From Leptolyngbyaceae cyanobacterium (GTDB lineage Bacteria > Cyanobacteriota > Cyanobacteriia > Phormidesmidales > Phormidesmidaceae), in NCBI GenBank assembly GCA_965263355.1, contig CBDHHL010000056.1, positions 2,368,001 through 2,432,000 of the forward strand: a stretch of DNA of 64,000 nt. The letters are read 5' to 3'. A program made the translations under genes and the position numbers. Below, piece by piece: positions 1 to 44,024 of this stretch (positions within the stretch are counted from its first letter, which is position 1; each line of letters starts with the position of its first letter). The notes under the pieces are model-generated. The model was not told the origin of the DNA, searched no databases, and was given only the letters and a program-made list of their open reading frames with translations.

Positions 1-747
1 AACACACTTTACGAAAAACTAGCAAACCCAGCTCTCTATCGCCAGATTCAGAAACAAATGAAGCTGCTGACAGACCAATTACTCGCAGAGGCGGCAGAGC
101 AAGGATTGAGTGATTCCTTTTTCGTTCACTATACGCCCAACTTAGGGCGAGACAACAACGATGATGAACTTGTTTGGTGGGCAGATGAAACAACGTCGGG
201 CACCACTGACTTTCAATTTATGCTGCGCGGAGCCATTAAAGAAGCAGGGGTGCTGGCCCTGCTCAATCGATATTACTTTCAGAAAATAGGAGTACATCCC
301 TTGGGAATTGGCTTTAATGCCCGACAAGCCCCCAAGAGGATGGAAGACATGTTGGCCCTGGTGAAGCAAAATTTTGACCCAACACATATGCCATTGATTA
401 TTGGTGTTGGGGATACAGTGACAAGTAAGGCCGTGGAGACAGACAATGGTTTAGTCTTTAAGCGCGGGGGGAGCGATCGCAACTTCCTCCAACTCATCCA
501 AAACATCGGTCAGGCATTCAATAGCGGCAACCTAGTTGCCTATGTCGACAGCAGTGGCGGCGAACTCAAAAATCGGCGAGCCCTTCCAGTAGAAACCCAA
601 AACGGTTTTTCCATTGTTACCCAAGGCCCTGGTGATCCACAGGATACTCGCGATCCATTAACCCTTAATGTGGTCTTTCCCGGTGGGCACCAACAATATT
701 GCGACGTATTTCAAGCGGGTGCCATCGCCCGCAAAGCAAACCAATAA
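1..747 (+). CDS. stpA: glucosylglycerol-phosphate phosphatase (5' part outside window)
   Basis: Frame is open from base 1; motifs HYTPNLGRD, GTTDFQFMLRGAIKEAG, IIGVGDTVTS, RGGSDRNFLQL match StpA/GgpP. Confidence 0.88.
   Translation, partial: NTLYEKLANPALYRQIQKQMKLLTDQLLAEAAEQGLSDSFFVHYTPNLGRDNNDDELVWWADETTSGTTDFQFMLRGAIKEAGVLALLNRYYFQKIGVHPLGIGFNARQAPKRMEDMLALVKQNFDPTHMPLIIGVGDTVTSKAVETDNGLVFKRGGSDRNFLQLIQNIGQAFNSGNLVAYVDSSGGELKNRRALPVETQNGFSIVTQGPGDPQDTRDPLTLNVVFPGGHQQYCDVFQAGAIARKANQ
473..480. repeat. HIP1 octamer GCGATCGC (representative copy; recurs across the window)
   Basis: Further copies at 897, 1377, 4916 and 48835, among others. Confidence 0.9.
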
Positions 748-752
748 CTCCC

Positions 753-1637
753 ATGCCACAAGTTATCGGTATTGATCTAGGCGGTACCGCCATTAAGTTA
801 GGACGGTTCTCCATCACAGGAGAATGTCTGGCATCACTGAGCGTCCCAACGCCTCAACCACAATCTCCAGAACCTGTTATGGCAGCGGTAGCAAATGCGA
901 TCGCCACCCTCGATCCAGACCATCAGGCCACTGTTATCGGTATCGGCACTCCTGGGCCTACCGATATTACTGCCCGCATTGCTCGCATTGCCATTAATTT
1001 ACCAGATTGGCTAGATGTACCCGTTGCTGACCTCCTCGAAGCCCGCATCCAGAGACCTGTTATCGTAGCCAACGATGCTAACTGTGCTGGCATGGGGGAA
1101 GCCTGGCTCGGTGCTGGCCAAGCTTACAAAAATCTAATTTTACTCACCCTGGGGACCGGCGTTGGGGGCTGCATCATTCTCAATGGTCAACTCTTTCTCG
1201 GTCACGATGGCTGCGCCGGAGAACTGGGGCTGGTCACCTTAGATCCCCAGGGGCACCAGTGTCACAGCGGCAATACTGGTTCCCTAGAGCAACATGTGTC
1301 TGCCCAGGCCATTCGTCGAGAGATGGGGATGGAACCTGGGGAGTTGGCACGGTTGGCAGACCAAGGAAATGGGGATGCGATCGCATTCTGGCAACGCTAC
1401 GGACGCCTCCTGGGCATTGGCATCGTTAGTTCTATCTACGTCTTAAATCCAGAAGCCGTCATTATTGGTGGTGGCATTAGTGCCGCTGCCGCCTATTTTC
1501 TGCCAGCCACTCAAATGGAAATCTCACAGCGTATCCGGCCCCATTACCGAGGCAACCTAAAAATACTGACAGCTACCTTAGGAAATCGCGCAGGCATGGT
1601 TGGAGCAGCCAAATTAGCCATAGATCATATTAGTTAA
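753..1637 (+). CDS. ROK-family sugar kinase (glucokinase)
   Basis: IGIDLGGT, VANDANCA, LTLGTGVGG, AGELG and Cys/His motif CHSGNTGSLE; ATG at 753 preferred, just after the stpA stop. Confidence 0.9.
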   Translation: MPQVIGIDLGGTAIKLGRFSITGECLASLSVPTPQPQSPEPVMAAVANAIATLDPDHQATVIGIGTPGPTDITARIARIAINLPDWLDVPVADLLEARIQRPVIVANDANCAGMGEAWLGAGQAYKNLILLTLGTGVGGCIILNGQLFLGHDGCAGELGLVTLDPQGHQCHSGNTGSLEQHVSAQAIRREMGMEPGELARLADQGNGDAIAFWQRYGRLLGIGIVSSIYVLNPEAVIIGGGISAAAAYFLPATQMEISQRIRPHYRGNLKILTATLGNRAGMVGAAKLAIDHIS

Positions 1638-37908: not shown

Positions 37909-40900
37909 ATGTCTAGTCCAACACGTAATCGACAAGCCCACGCGGTCAAGCCCAAAATTCTAGTCGTTGACGATGAACCTGACAATTTAGACCTGTTCTA
38001 TCGAACGTTCTATAGAGAATTTAAGGTTCTGCGGGCAGACAGTGGTCAAAACGCATTGACAAGTTTGGCCGAGAACCCAGATACCGCTGCCATTATTTCA
38101 GACCAGCGCATGCCCCATATGAGCGGCACAGAGTTGCTTTTACAAGTTGCGCAAAGCTACCCCAATACAATGCGGATAATGTTGACAGGCTACACTGATG
38201 TAGATGACCTAGTCGACGCTATCAATACAGGCAAGGTATTTAAGTACATTACTAAGCCCTGGGAGGAAGAGGATCTGCGAGGGGTAGTTCAACAGGCTAT
38301 CGAAACTCACTTAGTCCTCAAATCAAGAACTCGAGAACTTGATCGTATTCTTGAGCAAGAAACTCTCCTCAACGAAATCACCCACACTATTCACAGCACC
38401 GAAACCTCCGAAAAGATGCTGCAGGTAATCACCCGCACAGTGGGAGCAGCATTTGAAGCGGATTATTGTGTCCTACGGCCTTTGTATGATTCGCCAGGGC
38501 AGGGACAGAACTTCTGGACCTACCAAGCGGCTTCAGCCGCGAACATTGATGGAGACACTCTGGCAGACACCGCTATTGATAGCGATAGCCTACAGGTGAT
38601 GACGGCACCCAATCTCCCTGACCATAAGGCTTATCGAATCTTAAGCCCCCAATCTAGTATTCTTATACCGCTCACCAACAAACGTGAGCCTTTGGCCATT
38701 TTGGCACTGCATCACTGCCAGCAGGCCAAACGTTGGCAAACAGAGGAGCTAAAAACCCTGGGGACTTTGGTAGATCAAGCGGCCCTGGCATTGGCGCAGG
38801 CATGGACCTACGAACGAGTCCAGGCTCTGGCACAGCGAGAAGTCTTAATTAACACAATCACTCAGGCAATTCACAGTAGCTTAGAGCCAAAACAAATCTT
38901 TTCAGCCATCACCCAAAAACTGGGACAAGCTCTGCAAACTGACGGCTGTGCAATTTCGTTATGGACCCAGGACGATGACTATGTCGACTGTGTCGGCTTG
39001 TATGATGCCAAACAGGAAAAGATTCTCTCCTTACCAAAATCTCAGGTCAAAATCAGCGAGAACCCCATTCTACAGGAACTGCTAGTCAGCCGATCGCCCG
39101 TCGTCTTTGATGACTTATCGACATCGACCATTCACACCCCTAGCCATTTATCTCTTCAGGCACAGACAACGGCCCTACTGGTAGTGCCCTTAATTACTGA
39201 CGGTCAAATCATCGGTAGCATCAGTTTACGCCAGACCCAACCTCGTCACTGGCATATGGAAGAAATCAACTTGGCCCAGGCAGTTGCCAATCAAGCGGCG
39301 ATCGCAGTGCAGCAAGCTCGGTTATACCAAACCACCCGTCAACAGGCCGAACAATTAATGGCACTAGACAAGCAAAAGACTACATTTTTTCAGAACATTT
39401 CCCATGAATTTCGCACCCCTCTAACCCTGACCATCGGTCCCCTAGAGTCGGCTGTGGAAAATGGTACTGGACTGCCCCTAGATCAGTCGGTCATTGCCCT
39501 GCGCAATTCGCGTCGATTGCTGCGACTTGTCAACCAGCTACTGGACCTCCAGCGGCTTGATGCCGGGCGCATGCAGGCGACTTTTTATCCCTGCGACTTT
39601 GATCAAGTTGTTAAGGGCGTTGCTGAGGCATTTCAAGCCTATTGCGATCGCAAACGCATTACTCTAACCACTCAAATTCAGCCCTGCCCTTCGGTCTACC
39701 TTGACCTCGAAAAATTTGACAAGGTGCTCTATAACATTCTGTCCAATGCCGTTAAATTCACCCCAGCAGGAGGGGCCATTCAAATCACCTTAAATACCTT
39801 TGAAACCCGTTGCTATCTGGAGATCGAAGACACAGGGATTGGTATCCGAAAAGAACAACTACCCTACATTTTTGAACGCTTTCAACAGGCCGATGGCTCT
39901 GCTAATCGTACCCATGAGGGCACAGGCTTAGGTCTGGCACTTGTGAAAGAGTTGGTCGAACTTCATGGCGGGGAAATTCGAGTATCCTCCTCTTATGGGG
40001 CTGGCACCTTATTTACCGTTGAACTGCCGACAGGAGCTGACCATCTACCTGCGGATCGTGTCAATCAAACTGCCCGTACCCTGGAACAGAGGCGAGCAGC
40101 GGTAGAACTCGCCGATCTCCACAATCAAGTAGTGGCTGACACCACATTAGAGCCAACCCCAACTACATTAGAACCAACCCCAACTGCAGATACTGAAGAC
40201 ACTGCAGCGATTGAGCCACTCTCTTCCCCCACAATACCAAACATAGAAATAGCCGCATTATCAAATGCAACTGTAGCTCCAGAGAGTACAACCATCCTCG
40301 TCGTTGATGACAACCCAGATTTACGAAATTATGTAGCAACAATCTTGAAACAACAGAAATATCGCATCAAGACAGCAGATAACGGCGCAACTGGCCTTGC
40401 TGTAGCCAATCACATTCAGCCTCAATTGATTATTACGGATCTGATGATGCCCCAGGTTTCCGGGATAGAACTCATTCAGAAGGTCCGCCTTAATCCCAAA
40501 CTGCAAGGTACGCCCATCATTTTACTCACAGCCAAGGTCGATGATGACACTCGCTTAGAAGGCGTCGAACAGGGAGCAGATGCTTACATATCGAAGCCAT
40601 TTAAGGATCGCGAACTTTTGGCTGAAGTACGTAATTTATTGGCACTTAAGGCCAACGAACACCGGATAGCAGAACTCAACCAGTACCTCACTGAATCTGT
40701 CCTCAAGCGCTTTTTACCAGACTCCTTGGTGCAAAAGGCTGCCCATGGAACCCTACAGCTCAATCTCAAGCCCGAACCTCGCTTAGTGACCGTTTTATTT
40801 AGCGATATTGTGGGATTTACCCAACTGTCTAATACGTTGCGATCTCGCCGGGTAGCCGAACTCCTCAACGAATATTTTGAAGCCATGACCCATGCCATTT

Positions 40901-41358
40901 TTACCAGTGGCGGCACCGTTGATAAATTTATGGGGGACGCTGTTCTAGCCTTATTTGGTGCGCCAGAACCCCTGAGTCCCAATGAACAAGTCAGGCGTGC
41001 GATCGCAGCTGCGCGCCATATGTATAAAGCCCTAGAAGAGCTGAACCAACGTTGGAGTCAGCAGGGCGTTCCCCCTGTTAGATTCCGCTGTGGTATTCAT
41101 CAAGGCACTGCCGTAGTCGGCATGTTTGGCAGTGCTCAAAGAACAGACTATACCGCCATCGGCCCTAGCGTTAATATCGCTGCGCGCCTCCAAGAAGCCG
41201 CTGACGGCGAAAGCATTTTAGTCTCCGCCGCTGTCGCCGACTACCTCGACGAACAAGAAATCGTTAAATTCAGCCCTCTAAAGCTCAAGGGCATTGATGA
41301 AACAGTTCTAACATTCAACGTTAAAACAACCCTGCCAGAAGGTATAGGGATATCGTAG
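37909..41358 (+). CDS. cyaC: multidomain adenylate cyclase (REC-GAF-GAF-HisKA-HATPase-REC-cyclase), CyaC-type
   Basis: VVDDE receiver, two GAF domains, SHEFRTPL H-box, GTGLGL, second receiver, FSDIVGFT/DKFMGD/VNIAARL class III cyclase. Confidence 0.9.
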   Translation: MSSPTRNRQAHAVKPKILVVDDEPDNLDLFYRTFYREFKVLRADSGQNALTSLAENPDTAAIISDQRMPHMSGTELLLQVAQSYPNTMRIMLTGYTDVDDLVDAINTGKVFKYITKPWEEEDLRGVVQQAIETHLVLKSRTRELDRILEQETLLNEITHTIHSTETSEKMLQVITRTVGAAFEADYCVLRPLYDSPGQGQNFWTYQAASAANIDGDTLADTAIDSDSLQVMTAPNLPDHKAYRILSPQSSILIPLTNKREPLAILALHHCQQAKRWQTEELKTLGTLVDQAALALAQAWTYERVQALAQREVLINTITQAIHSSLEPKQIFSAITQKLGQALQTDGCAISLWTQDDDYVDCVGLYDAKQEKILSLPKSQVKISENPILQELLVSRSPVVFDDLSTSTIHTPSHLSLQAQTTALLVVPLITDGQIIGSISLRQTQPRHWHMEEINLAQAVANQAAIAVQQARLYQTTRQQAEQLMALDKQKTTFFQNISHEFRTPLTLTIGPLESAVENGTGLPLDQSVIALRNSRRLLRLVNQLLDLQRLDAGRMQATFYPCDFDQVVKGVAEAFQAYCDRKRITLTTQIQPCPSVYLDLEKFDKVLYNILSNAVKFTPAGGAIQITLNTFETRCYLEIEDTGIGIRKEQLPYIFERFQQADGSANRTHEGTGLGLALVKELVELHGGEIRVSSSYGAGTLFTVELPTGADHLPADRVNQTARTLEQRRAAVELADLHNQVVADTTLEPTPTTLEPTPTADTEDTAAIEPLSSPTIPNIEIAALSNATVAPESTTILVVDDNPDLRNYVATILKQQKYRIKTADNGATGLAVANHIQPQLIITDLMMPQVSGIELIQKVRLNPKLQGTPIILLTAKVDDDTRLEGVEQGADAYISKPFKDRELLAEVRNLLALKANEHRIAELNQYLTESVLKRFLPDSLVQKAAHGTLQLNLKPEPRLVTVLFSDIVGFTQLSNTLRSRRVAELLNEYFEAMTHAIFTSGGTVDKFMGDAVLALFGAPEPLSPNEQVRRAIAAARHMYKALEELNQRWSQQGVPPVRFRCGIHQGTAVVGMFGSAQRTDYTAIGPSVNIAARLQEAADGESILVSAAVADYLDEQEIVKFSPLKLKGIDETVLTFNVKTTLPEGIGIS
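40141..40182 (+). repeat. 21-bp tandem duplication (TTLEPTP x2) in the cyclase linker
   Basis: ACCACATTAGAGCCAACCCCA / ACTACATTAGAACCAACCCCA. Confidence 0.85.
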
Positions 41359-41382
41359 ATGGCAGCATTGCATGCCATGCCC

Positions 41383-41985
41383 TTAACCTGTAGGTAACCC
41401 ATAGCTATGCATGATGTGGCGCATGCGTTTTTTGGCCCGTGATACCCGTTTGCGCAATGTGGCTTGGCTGGGAATATCGGTTTCCCCCAGCTGCTCTAGA
41501 CGACTAGTAATTTGTGCCCACGACAATTGCTCAATCGTACGCCATACCAATAGTTGAGCCGTATGGTCATCCTCACGAGATAAGGCTCTGAGAGCCTTGT
41601 AGAGTAAATCAATCTCATGGCGCAAATCAATCGACTCCAGTACATAGTCAGGCTCAGCCCCGACACGATACTCGACATCATCATAACTCTGGGATGCCTG
41701 CCGCTGGGCCTGACGGCTTTTCTCACGCACGATATTGAACGCAGTGCGCTTGAGCCAGGCATGGGGATTGTAAATAACTTCACCATTACGCTGACGTGTT
41801 TTTCCCCGTAGATAGGCCTCAAACAAAATTTCATAGGGTTCAAACTGATGCATCAGTCGAAACTGATAGAGATGGCGGCGAACCGTAGCCAATGTGGAAT
41901 AAGCATAGGAATTACCACGACCTAAAATTTCAGAAAGGGCAAGATCCAAAACATCCAATAACGGCAATTCAGGTTGGTCAGCCAT
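41383..41985 (-). CDS. ECF-like sigma-70 family factor
   Basis: 200 aa; region-2-like EILFEAYLR...AWLKRTAFNIVREKSR; region-4-like LSWAQI...ATLRKRVSRAKKRMR. Confidence 0.82.
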   Translation of the reverse strand: MADQPELPLLDVLDLALSEILGRGNSYAYSTLATVRRHLYQFRLMHQFEPYEILFEAYLRGKTRQRNGEVIYNPHAWLKRTAFNIVREKSRQAQRQASQSYDDVEYRVGAEPDYVLESIDLRHEIDLLYKALRALSREDDHTAQLLVWRTIEQLSWAQITSRLEQLGETDIPSQATLRKRVSRAKKRMRHIMHSYGLPTG

Positions 41986-42011
41986 ACCAATGAGCAGGGG
42001 ATTCTCTTACA

Positions 42012-42038
42012 TAGTGATGTTCAGTGTGGCCCCGTGAC
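42012..42038 (-). promoter_or_regulatory. GTCAC-N17-CACTA motif, copy 1 (faces the sigma gene)
   Basis: Minus strand GTCAC ggggccacactgaacat CACTA; 26 nt upstream of the ATG at 41985. Confidence 0.72.
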
Positions 42039-42144
42039 ATTACGCATTTATCTATATTTATTCAAGAATACGTAGGTTTGCCCACAGAGGACCGTAGTTT
42101 ATCGTAACGACTTCAGCCAATTAGGAAACCATTTGAAATTTGCC

Positions 42145-42171
42145 GTCACAGTAGTATGGTCCCAGCCACTA
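42145..42171 (+). promoter_or_regulatory. GTCAC-N17-CACTA motif, copy 2
   Basis: GTCAC agtagtatggtcccagc CACTA; 45 nt upstream of the ATG at 42217. Confidence 0.72.
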
Positions 42172-42216
42172 ACCACTTAGCGTACTCATTCAGCACCGTT
42201 TAATGGAGACAAACCC

Positions 42217-42702
42217 ATGTTTAGCAATTCCAGCAATGTCAGCATTAGCAATCATGCCCAGCAACATCATGATTTGATCCATGCATATTGCCAGTTATCC
42301 ATCAAGCCTGACCTGAACGATAGTGATACTGATCGTTTGGACGGTATTTTGGCAATGGCTGAAACCGATTCGCTCATAAGTTTCTTAATCGATGAAGCAG
42401 ATCATATGCTGTCACACTTATATAGTTTGATTGATGAGAACGATATTGCTGACCAGCAGAAAAAATTACAAGCCTGCCTTAACGAATCATGGCTAAACCA
42501 AGCTTTTCAGGACCTAGCCCATCGTCTGCAAACGTCACAATGTAAAAGCCTGCAACAATACCTTAAAGAAGAGGGCTTTTACACCGGAGCGATTGATGGG
42601 GTAATGGGGTCCTTGACCAAAGCTGCCATGAAGCAATGTTGCGAACAGCAAGGACAACTGCCACAGCCATTACCGATTCATACCCCAGAGACTGTGAATT
42701 AA
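42217..42702 (+). CDS. sigma-associated protein with C-terminal peptidoglycan-binding-like domain
   Basis: GGAG RBS; helical N-domain; LQQYLKEEGFYTGAIDGVMGSLTKAAMKQ is PG_binding_1-like; no signal peptide or TM seen. Confidence 0.75.
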   Translation: MFSNSSNVSISNHAQQHHDLIHAYCQLSIKPDLNDSDTDRLDGILAMAETDSLISFLIDEADHMLSHLYSLIDENDIADQQKKLQACLNESWLNQAFQDLAHRLQTSQCKSLQQYLKEEGFYTGAIDGVMGSLTKAAMKQCCEQQGQLPQPLPIHTPETVN

Positions 42703-42797
42703 TAAAATGCTGTATTCCTTTTAACGCAAAGCTTTATACAACTTGGACTATAGCCAATTTGCTGATCCAATCGCTGTACTGACCACTATACCTACCG

Positions 42798-42824
42798 GTC
42801 ACATCTGCACGGAGGTCATCACTA
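42798..42824 (+). promoter_or_regulatory. GTCAC-N17-CACTA motif, copy 3
   Basis: GTCAC atctgcacggaggtcat CACTA; about 27-30 nt upstream of the pentapeptide gene start. Confidence 0.72.
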
Positions 42825-42851
42825 GTAGATAAGTAAGCCTACTAGACTCCT

Positions 42852-43253
42852 TTGATGAACAGCATTATGCAATCGAACATTCAAACTTTAATCAAGCGTT
42901 ACCAACAGGGTGAGCGTATATTCCATGGATTAGACTTGCGGGGGTGTGACCTGAGCCATTTACAGCTACCAGAAATTGACCTCAGCTATAGCATTTTAAG
43001 TGAGGCTTCCTTAGTAAGCACAGATTTAGCATGGGCAGTTTTGCGGGATGTTAATTTGACCAACGCTAACTTGACCTCTGCCCATCTGCATCGAGCCAAC
43101 CTGAGACGCGCTAACCTCACTACGGCCACCCTCAACAAAGCCGACTTGCGCGCTGCCGACCTACGCGGCGCAACTATTGTCAATACAGTTTTTATTGACA
43201 GTAATCTTTGGGGGGCAGTGGCTCCAGACGGTAGCCCACTCCATCGGAATTAG
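42852..43253 (+). CDS. pentapeptide repeat protein
   Basis: RYQQGERIF followed by A(D/N)Lxx repeats. Confidence 0.9.
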   Translation: MMNSIMQSNIQTLIKRYQQGERIFHGLDLRGCDLSHLQLPEIDLSYSILSEASLVSTDLAWAVLRDVNLTNANLTSAHLHRANLRRANLTTATLNKADLRAADLRGATIVNTVFIDSNLWGAVAPDGSPLHRN

Positions 43254-43259
43254 AGTTGA

Positions 43260-44024
43260 TTAATCTATGCGCAACCGACGGGTGATTAAAATCAGACCAT
43301 CTTCCCGAATCAATAAACCAGATATCCAAAGGTTATCCTCTACAGCTGGCGCATCTGCTAGCTTAAACAAACCACCGGCGGATAAGAGTTCTAGATCTAA
43401 GGGACGAGGGGTAAAGAAATCTGCTGCGGTGGTGCCCTCATCTAGGGCTGCACCCAGCAAATAACGTTCACCTAGGGGTTCTTGAACAATGGCATCAAAT
43501 CCATAGCTATTACCTGGTGCTACTCGCTCAGGCAAGATCACCACAACCTCCGGTGGAGTAGCGTCAGAACTTAGCTGATTACGCTCAGATACAATTTCTT
43601 GTGATGTAATTTGATTGTTAATAAACTGCTGGCGGGAGTGAATTACCGACTCTAGGGTGAGGGAACGGGGAGTAGTTTGTCTACCATCAATATAAGTGAC
43701 TGTCTCGGCCAAATAGCCACCATTCATTTCTTCCCAAGACTGTAGCTCTACCCGATAGGTGAGGGTATCGTAACGTTCCCATAGTTGAGGCAATGTTGTC
43801 TTGAGGGCGTCATAACTAAAGCCATCATTATTAGTAAAACCGTCAGCATAAAATGCCATCACCCCCTCAAGATCTTGCTCATTAGACGCAGATTCGATCT
43901 GTTCTAAGGCATTCACCAAGGTTGCTGGTGCCGTTTCTGGAGGAGCAGCTTGGGCAGGCAAGCCAAATATACTCATCCCCAGCACACTCAATGAATACAG
44001 CAACCAGCGGCAAGGATGCATCAT
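43260..44024 (-). CDS. exported NTF2/SnoaL-like protein
   Basis: Signal ending AQA; DLEGVMAFYADGF NTF2-like start; C-terminal GGLFK. Confidence 0.75.
   Translation of the reverse strand: MMHPCRWLLYSLSVLGMSIFGLPAQAAPPETAPATLVNALEQIESASNEQDLEGVMAFYADGFTNNDGFSYDALKTTLPQLWERYDTLTYRVELQSWEEMNGGYLAETVTYIDGRQTTPRSLTLESVIHSRQQFINNQITSQEIVSERNQLSSDATPPEVVVILPERVAPGNSYGFDAIVQEPLGERYLLGAALDEGTTAADFFTPRPLDLELLSAGGLFKLADAPAVEDNLWISGLLIREDGLILITRRLRID

Follow-up and report, generated by a model that had tools for sequence, protein, structure and literature searches.

The window analyzed here is a 64,000-bp stretch of the genome of a Leptolyngbyaceae cyanobacterium (contig CBDHHL010000056.1, positions 2,368,001 to 2,432,000 of the forward strand). 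It contains three copies of the bipartite motif GTCAC-N17-CACTA, which lie upstream of three neighboring genes. These genes code for a sigma factor resembling the extracytoplasmic function (ECF) class, a divergently transcribed partner protein and a pentapeptide-repeat protein. From the comparisons of sequences described below, we consider it likely that the three sites are cognate -35/-10 promoters of the adjacent sigma factor, which would transcribe its own gene, the partner gene and the pentapeptide gene. In the proposed mechanism, RNA polymerase with this sigma factor would initiate transcription a few nucleotides downstream of each CACTA, and the circuit would be positively autoregulated. 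The soluble partner would keep the sigma factor inactive until a signal arrives. The output would be a very small regulon, which in close relatives would additionally include an NfeD-like/SPFH (flotillin-type) membrane operon. Such a target would suggest that the response concerns the envelope or membrane.

Three copies of the motif and their conservation

The motif has exactly three matches in the window and all of them are confined to 813 bp. In 100 dinucleotide-preserving shuffles of the 64-kb window, the mean number of matches was 0.11 and three copies were never reached. Three exact copies within about 810 bp had been reported in a preliminary description of this region, which was made from the sequence alone, and this observation is confirmed. 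When one mismatch was allowed, eight matches were found in the window against 3.1 expected. The five extra matches are scattered and look like chance matches. The spacers of the three exact copies are mutually unrelated. Therefore, the three sites are not copies of one repeat unit.

The predicted autoregulatory promoter of the sigma gene is located at 42012-42038 on the minus strand. Its -35-like box GTCAC occupies 42038-42034 and its -10-like box CACTA occupies 42016-42012, and the ATG of the sigma gene (41985) lies 26 nt past CACTA. The predicted promoter of the divergent partner gene is an exact copy of the motif at 42145-42171 on the plus strand, and the ATG of the partner gene (42217) follows CACTA by 45 nt. 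The predicted promoter of the pentapeptide-repeat gene, again an exact copy, is found at 42798-42824 on the plus strand, 42 nt (counted from CACTA) before the ATG at 42867. The list of open reading frames (ORFs) had placed the start of the pentapeptide gene at TTG 42852. In tblastn searches, the alignment begins at residue 1 of the protein starting from ATG 42867 in all 18 relatives' loci that have the gene, and conservation begins at ATGCAATCGAA. Therefore, we assigned the start codon to ATG 42867. The preliminary description had placed each copy 26-45 nt from a gene start; all three copies do point at starts (at 26, 45 and 42 nt), but the pentapeptide start itself had to be moved.

Conservation of the sites was examined in close relatives. 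When species-representative genomes were scanned with the sigma protein, 20 loci with 86-93% identity were obtained, which belong to marine cyanobacteria of the Leptothoe / Adonisia / 'Leptolyngbya sp. PCC 7375' group. Nineteen of these loci include the upstream region and were used for the counts of sites. The partner-gene site is exact in 19/19 orthologous loci, with variable spacers, and the pentapeptide-gene site is likewise exact in 19/19. The sigma-gene site is exact in 14/19. Four further loci carry one mismatch in the -10 box of this site (CACTT in L011, CATTA in L012 and L015, CACTG in L016), and L003 has GTTAC-N17-TACTA with two mismatches. The window and the 19 loci were then aligned with MAFFT, and identity was measured relative to the window in the resulting 20 rows. 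Mean identity was 0.992 in the motif boxes (30 columns), 0.64 in the spacers (51 columns), 0.547 in the other intergenic columns (314 columns) and 0.729 in the partner coding sequence (486 columns). In the partner-gene and pentapeptide-gene sites, all box columns were 100% identical, and the -35 flank of the sigma-gene site (GCGGAATGTCAC) is likewise conserved. With nearly invariant boxes and diverging spacers and flanks, each of the three sites is a clear phylogenetic footprint. The counts had been made on the very copies that gave the motif its definition, and this circularity is answered by the conservation in 19 orthologous loci. The earlier proposal that the motif is the cognate promoter of this sigma type is supported at the sequence level by the footprint (99% identity in the boxes versus 64% in the spacers and 55% in other intergenic sequence).

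Homologues of the sigma factor (E<=1e-8) were found in 45/401 sampled cyanobacterial genomes. The set of distant loci consists of 27 loci, in which the sigma homologues show 27-50% identity. The exact N17 motif is present upstream of the sigma ORF, in the orientation of the sigma gene, in 11 of these 27 loci; in ten of them the distance to the ORF is within about 150 nt and in one it is about 270 nt. In four more loci, the -10 box deviates at one position (CACTT or CACTG). Conservation of the motif upstream of orthologous sigma genes had been set beforehand as a test of the proposal, and the outcome (14/19 exact in close loci, 11/27 exact in distant loci) is in its favor. In distant loci, the motif is found upstream of divergent partner genes as well. 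The 76 distinct exact sites, which are not phylogenetically independent, gave the extended consensus GTCACA (A in 67/76) ... T (56/76) CACTA, with a weaker T-N-A-G/A signal 6-9 nt downstream of CACTA, approximately at the expected position of initiation. A paralogue locus in the distant genome G251 (contig C103, 145554-147940) contains three exact copies in 2.4 kb, and this local clustering resembles that in the window. The clusters of the motif seen in nine scanned genomes sit at sigma loci. Across cyanobacteria, the predicted promoter motif accompanies the genes of the sigma family.

Two additional elements were observed close to the boxes. The word CTTAGC at 42176-42181 on the plus strand, 5-10 nt past the -10 box of the partner site, is almost invariant in 20 aligned loci. 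T.AG words resembling CTTAGC trail CACTA at other sites (T at +6 and A at +8). These words may be an initiation-region element. The other element is an inverted repeat, CTAGTAG-N10-CTACTAG, at 42822-42845 on the plus strand, which overlaps the -10 box of the pentapeptide promoter. Its RNA folding energy is not significant (z-score -0.98). Among 16 loci, 86.6% of the cells pair and three cells are changed on both sides; this covariation is weak, the observed level being reached in 12/500 shuffles. The repeat is kept in most close relatives, and the compensatory form CTAATAG/CTATTAG is found in L007 and L020. It is possible that the repeat is a DNA operator or a 5' stem. The overlap of its 5' arm with the -10 box may favor a DNA operator over an RNA stem.

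The sigma factor and its partner protein

The sigma gene (41383-41985, minus strand) encodes a 200-aa protein, which was recognized as an ECF-like (sigma2-sigma4) sigma factor from its ORF, a family profile and its predicted fold. When this protein was compared with Pfam, zero families matched at E<=1. It scored 39.4 bits with NCBIfam PRK12527 (cutoff 162) and 22.6 bits with NCBIfam TIGR02937 sigma70-ECF (cutoff 42.9). When 21 family members were compared with Pfam, Sigma70_r2 matched three (best E 0.03) and r4_2 matched four. Thus, the curated models that define the class (Pfam Sigma70_r2 with Sigma70_r4/r4_2; NCBIfam TIGR02937) do not capture the window sigma factor. A family profile was built from the alignment of the 21 sequences and compared with the PDB. 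The best match was ECF SigW (5wuq, E 4.8e-4, profile positions 47-194), followed by SigL, SigE and SigH. By eye, the invariant residues W77, E88 and R91 (..PHAWLKRTAFNIVRE.SR) resemble sigma region 2.3-2.4, and R178, R183 and R189 (..LRQR.SRAKKRLR) resemble sigma region 4.2.

The AlphaFold2 model of the sigma protein has a mean pLDDT of 84.7 and consists of two helical domains connected by a low-confidence or disordered linker (103-117). In a Foldseek search with this model, the 21 top-ranked matches shown were all sigma factors, and ranks 1-11 were ECF sigma factors (SigL, SigE, SigH, RpoE and SigW) with probabilities of 0.82-1.00, a best E-value of 7.5e-3 and a TM score of about 0.3. The TM score is low because the arrangement of the two domains differs. 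Judged by fold, the protein possesses sigma2 and sigma4 without sigma3, as is typical of ECF (group 4) sigma factors. A bipartite promoter in front of its own gene, another feature of this group, is seen only at the level of sequence. From the profile and the predicted fold, we conclude that the window sigma factor is an ECF-like two-domain sigma factor outside the curated models. The ECF-like assignment in the preliminary description is supported by the same two lines of evidence, with SigW as the best match of the profile.

A profile search of a large protein collection retrieved 128 proteins at E<=1e-10. The organisms named among them are always cyanobacteria (Leptothoe, Leptolyngbya, Nodosilinea, Oculatella, Phormidium, Lyngbya and Calothrix), and most of the 128 proteins have no precomputed Pfam domain. 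Some genomes contain two to four paralogues of the sigma family; the close clade of the window mostly has one copy.

The partner gene (42217-42702, plus strand) encodes a 161-aa soluble protein, in which Pfam, a family hidden Markov model (HMM) and the AlphaFold2 model delineate a helical N-terminal domain and a C-terminal PG_binding_1 domain. PG_binding_1 (PF01471) matched the partner with 28 bits (cutoff 23) and was found in 11/14 members of the partner family (best E 6.3e-19). The partner-family HMM matches an ORF adjoining the sigma gene in 26/29 loci, and this ORF is divergent or directly downstream. The helical N-terminal domain is kept across the family, with the consensus EYCxLALQ..L....ADRL..IL.QAE.DPLLSFWIDEADH. 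By eye, no signal peptide, hydrophobic segment or transmembrane segment was seen in the partner sequence. In the AlphaFold2 model (pLDDT 82.2), the C-terminal domain resembles the N-terminal PG-binding domain of SleB (6tci) with a Foldseek probability of 1.00 and 46% identity over 41 columns. The comparison with 6tci by VIA-align gave Z 6.3, and the C-terminal domain has the three-helix PG-binding fold.

The N-terminal domain of the partner has no clear fold match, and Foldseek gave none at E<=0.001. The best VIA-align scores for this domain were Z 6.1-6.2, tied with unrelated helical proteins. Among the tied structures is the cytoplasmic anti-sigma domain of PupR (5cam_A; Z 6.1, root mean square deviation 2.6 A over 55 residues; Foldseek probability 0.47). 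It should be mentioned that Z 6.1 is below the level that VIA-align calls meaningful for helical bundles, and the modeled resemblance to the PupR anti-sigma domain is a lead only. No Pfam anti-sigma family was found in the partner or its family members, and an atlas search with the N-terminal domain returned only its own cyanobacterial PG_binding_1 cluster (score 0.76). Judged from its sequence and gene position, the partner is likely a regulator of the sigma factor, and an anti-sigma candidate.

Other genes of the module and a fourth site

The pentapeptide-repeat protein gene (42867-43253, plus strand) encodes 128 aa. It matches Pfam Pentapeptide (PF00805) with 76.9 bits (cutoff 20.2), and its score with the NCBIfam Alr5209 equivalog model is 102.5 bits, below the cutoff of 125. 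The family-wide conserved module consists of the sigma gene and the partner gene, to which the pentapeptide gene is added only in the close clade. The preliminary description had regarded the three genes as one module; this stands for the sigma and partner genes, which adjoin each other in 26/29 loci, but not for the pentapeptide gene outside the close clade. In two distant lineages, the gene for a small Cys-rich (CPxC...CxxC, zinc-ribbon-like) protein has the motif instead of the pentapeptide gene. This gene is located at 37-339 (minus strand) in L057, where the motif has one mismatch, and at 1179-1451 (plus strand) in L079, where the motif is exact. An ORF similar to the Cys-rich gene, with a one-mismatch site, was observed in L061 as well.

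Genome-wide scans were performed in the genomes of relatives, and the reversed pattern was used as a control. In the close genomes G001, G002, G003 and G004, the numbers of matches of the motif and of the reversed control were 15 vs 23, 13 vs 24, 4 vs 8 and 12 vs 26, respectively. In the distant genomes G273, G204, G251, G226 and G386, they were 7 vs 9, 7 vs 18, 7 vs 11, 3 vs 16 and 9 vs 6. Since there is no genome-wide enrichment, the ten bases alone do not define the regulon, and the regulon would be small. Most of the extra genomic matches were dismissed as regulon members because they lie inside long open frames. Only one further site passed the filter of intergenic location, correct orientation and conservation with a variable spacer. 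Thus, the genome scan suggested in the preliminary description did not reveal enrichment of the bare motif but did reveal one additional conserved site, at an NfeD-like/SPFH operon.

This fourth site is found in the genomes of relatives, outside the window. It is intergenic and correctly oriented, and its boxes are conserved while the spacer varies. It lies 30-odd nt upstream of the gene for a 237-aa membrane protein, which is followed by an SPFH/Band_7 gene (9.4e-21). The 237-aa protein has a weak match to the NfeD C-terminal domain (17.9 bits, below the cutoff). Five close genomes (G001, G003, G004, G152 and G080) carry the site without a mismatch, and in G002 (L081) one base deviates (GGCAC). 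The locus is represented by L034 (1500-3027) and by L021, L041, L082 and L083. The motif is absent upstream of the homologue of the NfeD-like gene in the distant genomes G204 and G273. When the window was searched with a degenerate pattern of the fourth site, there were 0 matches at <=3 mismatches. In Bacillus subtilis, yuaF-floT-yuaI is described, in the available text of PMC7026026, as a SigW-dependent NfeD-flotillin operon. By analogy, the NfeD-like/SPFH target suggests a membrane or envelope function.

The window genes on both sides of the module are convergent with it. A 1149-aa multidomain signaling protein is encoded at 37909-41358 on the plus strand, and receiver, GAF-like, histidine kinase, receiver and nucleotide cyclase domains were recognized in it by eye. 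This gene converges on the sigma gene, with the two stop codons 25 nt apart, and both close relatives that were inspected (L051 and L053) have the same signaling neighbor. On the other side, an ORF of 254 aa (43260-44024, minus strand), whose N-terminus contains a hydrophobic signal-like segment, converges on the pentapeptide gene; no family match was obtained for it (Pfam and NCBIfam, E>0.04).

Alternative explanations and comparison with known systems

ECF sigma factors commonly autoregulate, which permits prediction of their promoters (PMC7826278, as far as the available text goes). In the region 41300-43400, a scan for sigma-70-type promoters found one site, against 3.8 in shuffles, and the -10 hexamer of this sole site lies inside the non-conserved spacer of the partner site. 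Because there is no conserved sigma-70-type promoter, the conserved boxes are the only promoter candidates. Several observations weigh against recognition of these boxes by the adjacent sigma factor. The sigma protein is below the cutoff of every curated sigma HMM, and its model has no Foldseek match at E<=0.001. The common ECF -10 box is CGTC-like, and CACTA does not resemble it. Of the three sites, the one of the sigma gene itself is the least well preserved in close relatives, with mismatches in 5/19 loci. The related loci are also phylogenetically non-independent, and there are thus fewer independent observations than the counts suggest. In 12 of the 27 distant loci, the N17 motif is absent at <=1 mismatch. 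By eye, nine of these 12 loci nevertheless have GTCACa where it is expected, and differ in the spacing or the -10 box, namely N18-CACTA (L056 and L072), N16-CACAA (L069, L070, L071 and L074), N16-CACTT (L073), N17-CACAG (L075) and N20-CACTT (L080); these nine speak for the association of the motif with the sigma family. No convincing variant of the site was seen by eye in the upstream regions of L061, L076 and L077. Furthermore, the bare 10-nt motif is not enriched in the nine genomes scanned, and the motif contains TCAC twice, at a distance of 20 nt, so that it could be read by a DNA-binding regulator of direct repeats.

The last point leads to a different explanation, which we regard as unlikely: the motif would be the binding site of a DNA-binding regulator, for example a response regulator on two TCAC half-sites separated by about two helical turns, and transcription would start from weak housekeeping-type promoters nearby. 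The T that precedes CACTA in 56/76 sites gives a TCAC[A]...TCAC[T] repeat with a 20-nt offset, and the large hybrid receiver/histidine-kinase/cyclase gene (37909-41358) adjoins the sigma gene and is syntenic in two close relatives. However, the strict orientation of the motif to the downstream gene and its narrow distance from the start codon in most loci fit a promoter better. There is no conserved sigma-70-type -10/-35 pair with which such a factor could work, and the motif accompanies the sigma gene into lineages without the neighboring kinase. We also counted the 20-nt offset of the repeat against this explanation, because such an offset is unusual for winged-helix regulators.

It is also conceivable that the sites are true promoters read by another alternative sigma factor encoded elsewhere, the local sigma gene being merely a target. 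Cross-recognition could be imagined in genomes with two to four family paralogues, where the paralogue loci carry the same motif. However, the motif precedes the family's own genes over a range of 27-92% identity, single-copy genomes included, its clusters in the nine scanned genomes sit at sigma loci, and the close clade of the window is mostly single copy. We consider this explanation quite improbable. It is extremely improbable that the three copies have no regulatory role and arose by chance or are left over from a short dispersed repeat: elsewhere in genomes the ten fixed bases are about as frequent as the reversed control, but three copies did not arise in any of the 100 shuffles, the boxes are invariant against diverging spacers and flanks, and the spacers differ between the copies. 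Thus, among the explanations considered, we favor promoters read by the adjacent sigma factor.

As a circuit, this proposal resembles the B. subtilis SigW/RsiW system. SigW, the best solved match of the family profile, is likewise a two-domain sigma2-sigma4 protein of about 200 aa, and both systems have a fixed-spacer bipartite promoter upstream of the sigma gene and a conserved adjacent partner gene. The small predicted regulon, which in close relatives includes the NfeD-like/SPFH operon, recalls yuaF-floT-yuaI (available text of PMC7026026). In contrast to SigW, the window sigma factor is too divergent for any curated sigma HMM cutoff, and unlike RsiW, its partner has no visible transmembrane segment and no detectable anti-sigma domain but has PG_binding_1. 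The boxes GTCAC and CACTA also differ from SigW-type boxes. ECF41 sigma factors, according to the available text of PMC3426412, read TGTCACA-n16-CGTC upstream of their own and neighboring genes. The -35 box ((T)GTCACA) is nearly identical to that of the window, and the very small local regulon is similar (PMC3426412, same text). However, the -10 box in the window is CACTA and not CGTC, and the spacer is 17 nt instead of the 16+/-1 nt given there. Moreover, the window sigma factor (200 aa) ends right after sigma4 without a C-terminal SnoaL-like extension, and the neighboring gene is not COE-type. Lacking both the SnoaL-like extension and the CGTC -10 box, the window sigma factor does not match ECF41. 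Mycobacterium tuberculosis SigJ (5xe7) was a marginal match of the profile (E 0.57, N-terminal part).

Among the ECF 2.0 groups described in the supplementary text of PMC7826278, as far as it was available, ECF111 and ECF237 are rich in cyanobacteria and contain sigma factors of similar size. By these group descriptions, ECF111 has a one-transmembrane anti-sigma factor at +1, whereas the window partner is soluble with PG_binding_1, and ECF237 has neither an anti-sigma factor nor a conserved promoter motif, whereas the motif of the window locus is strongly conserved. The available group descriptions in this supplement contain no 'GTCAC', 'PG_binding_1' or 'pentapeptide', and a later group description could lie beyond them. 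According to the available text of PMC7826278, the ECF 2.0 classification requires Pfam hits to both sigma2 and sigma4. With this filter, the sigma family of the window would mostly be excluded. A 2024 census of cyanobacterial sigma factors is, according to its abstract, domain-based (PMC11119718). Our literature search found no description of the motif, the sigma family or the partner. Thus, the kind of circuit is well known, and the sigma family is apparently unclassified, with an unusual -10 box and a soluble PG-binding partner.

Pfam-domain censuses, including ECF 2.0, probably miss this sigma family. Alternative sigma factors of cyanobacteria are poorly mapped to promoters, and here a precise prediction is available, which specifies the sigma factor, the boxes, the spacer, the targets and a candidate regulator. 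Orthogonal ECF sigma/promoter pairs serve as synthetic-biology parts, and for cyanobacteria such a part could be drawn from this pair, whose boxes are unusual and whose genomic targets would be very few. The soluble partner with a peptidoglycan-binding domain raises the question of what signal is sensed in the cytoplasm. A bolder proposal, which we hold to be doubtful, sees in the sigma factor and the partner an ECF signaling pair of a new type. Here, the partner would represent a new class of anti-sigma factor, soluble and cytoplasmic. Intracellular peptidoglycan fragments or precursors would be sensed by its PG_binding_1 domain, and the sigma factor would thereby be released. The sigma factor would then switch on, through GTCAC-N17-CACTA promoters, a tiny regulon for envelope and membrane maintenance, consisting of itself, the partner, the pentapeptide or zinc-ribbon-like protein and NfeD/flotillin. 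If this proposal is true, a whole cyanobacterial ECF group would be invisible to Pfam-based sigma censuses.

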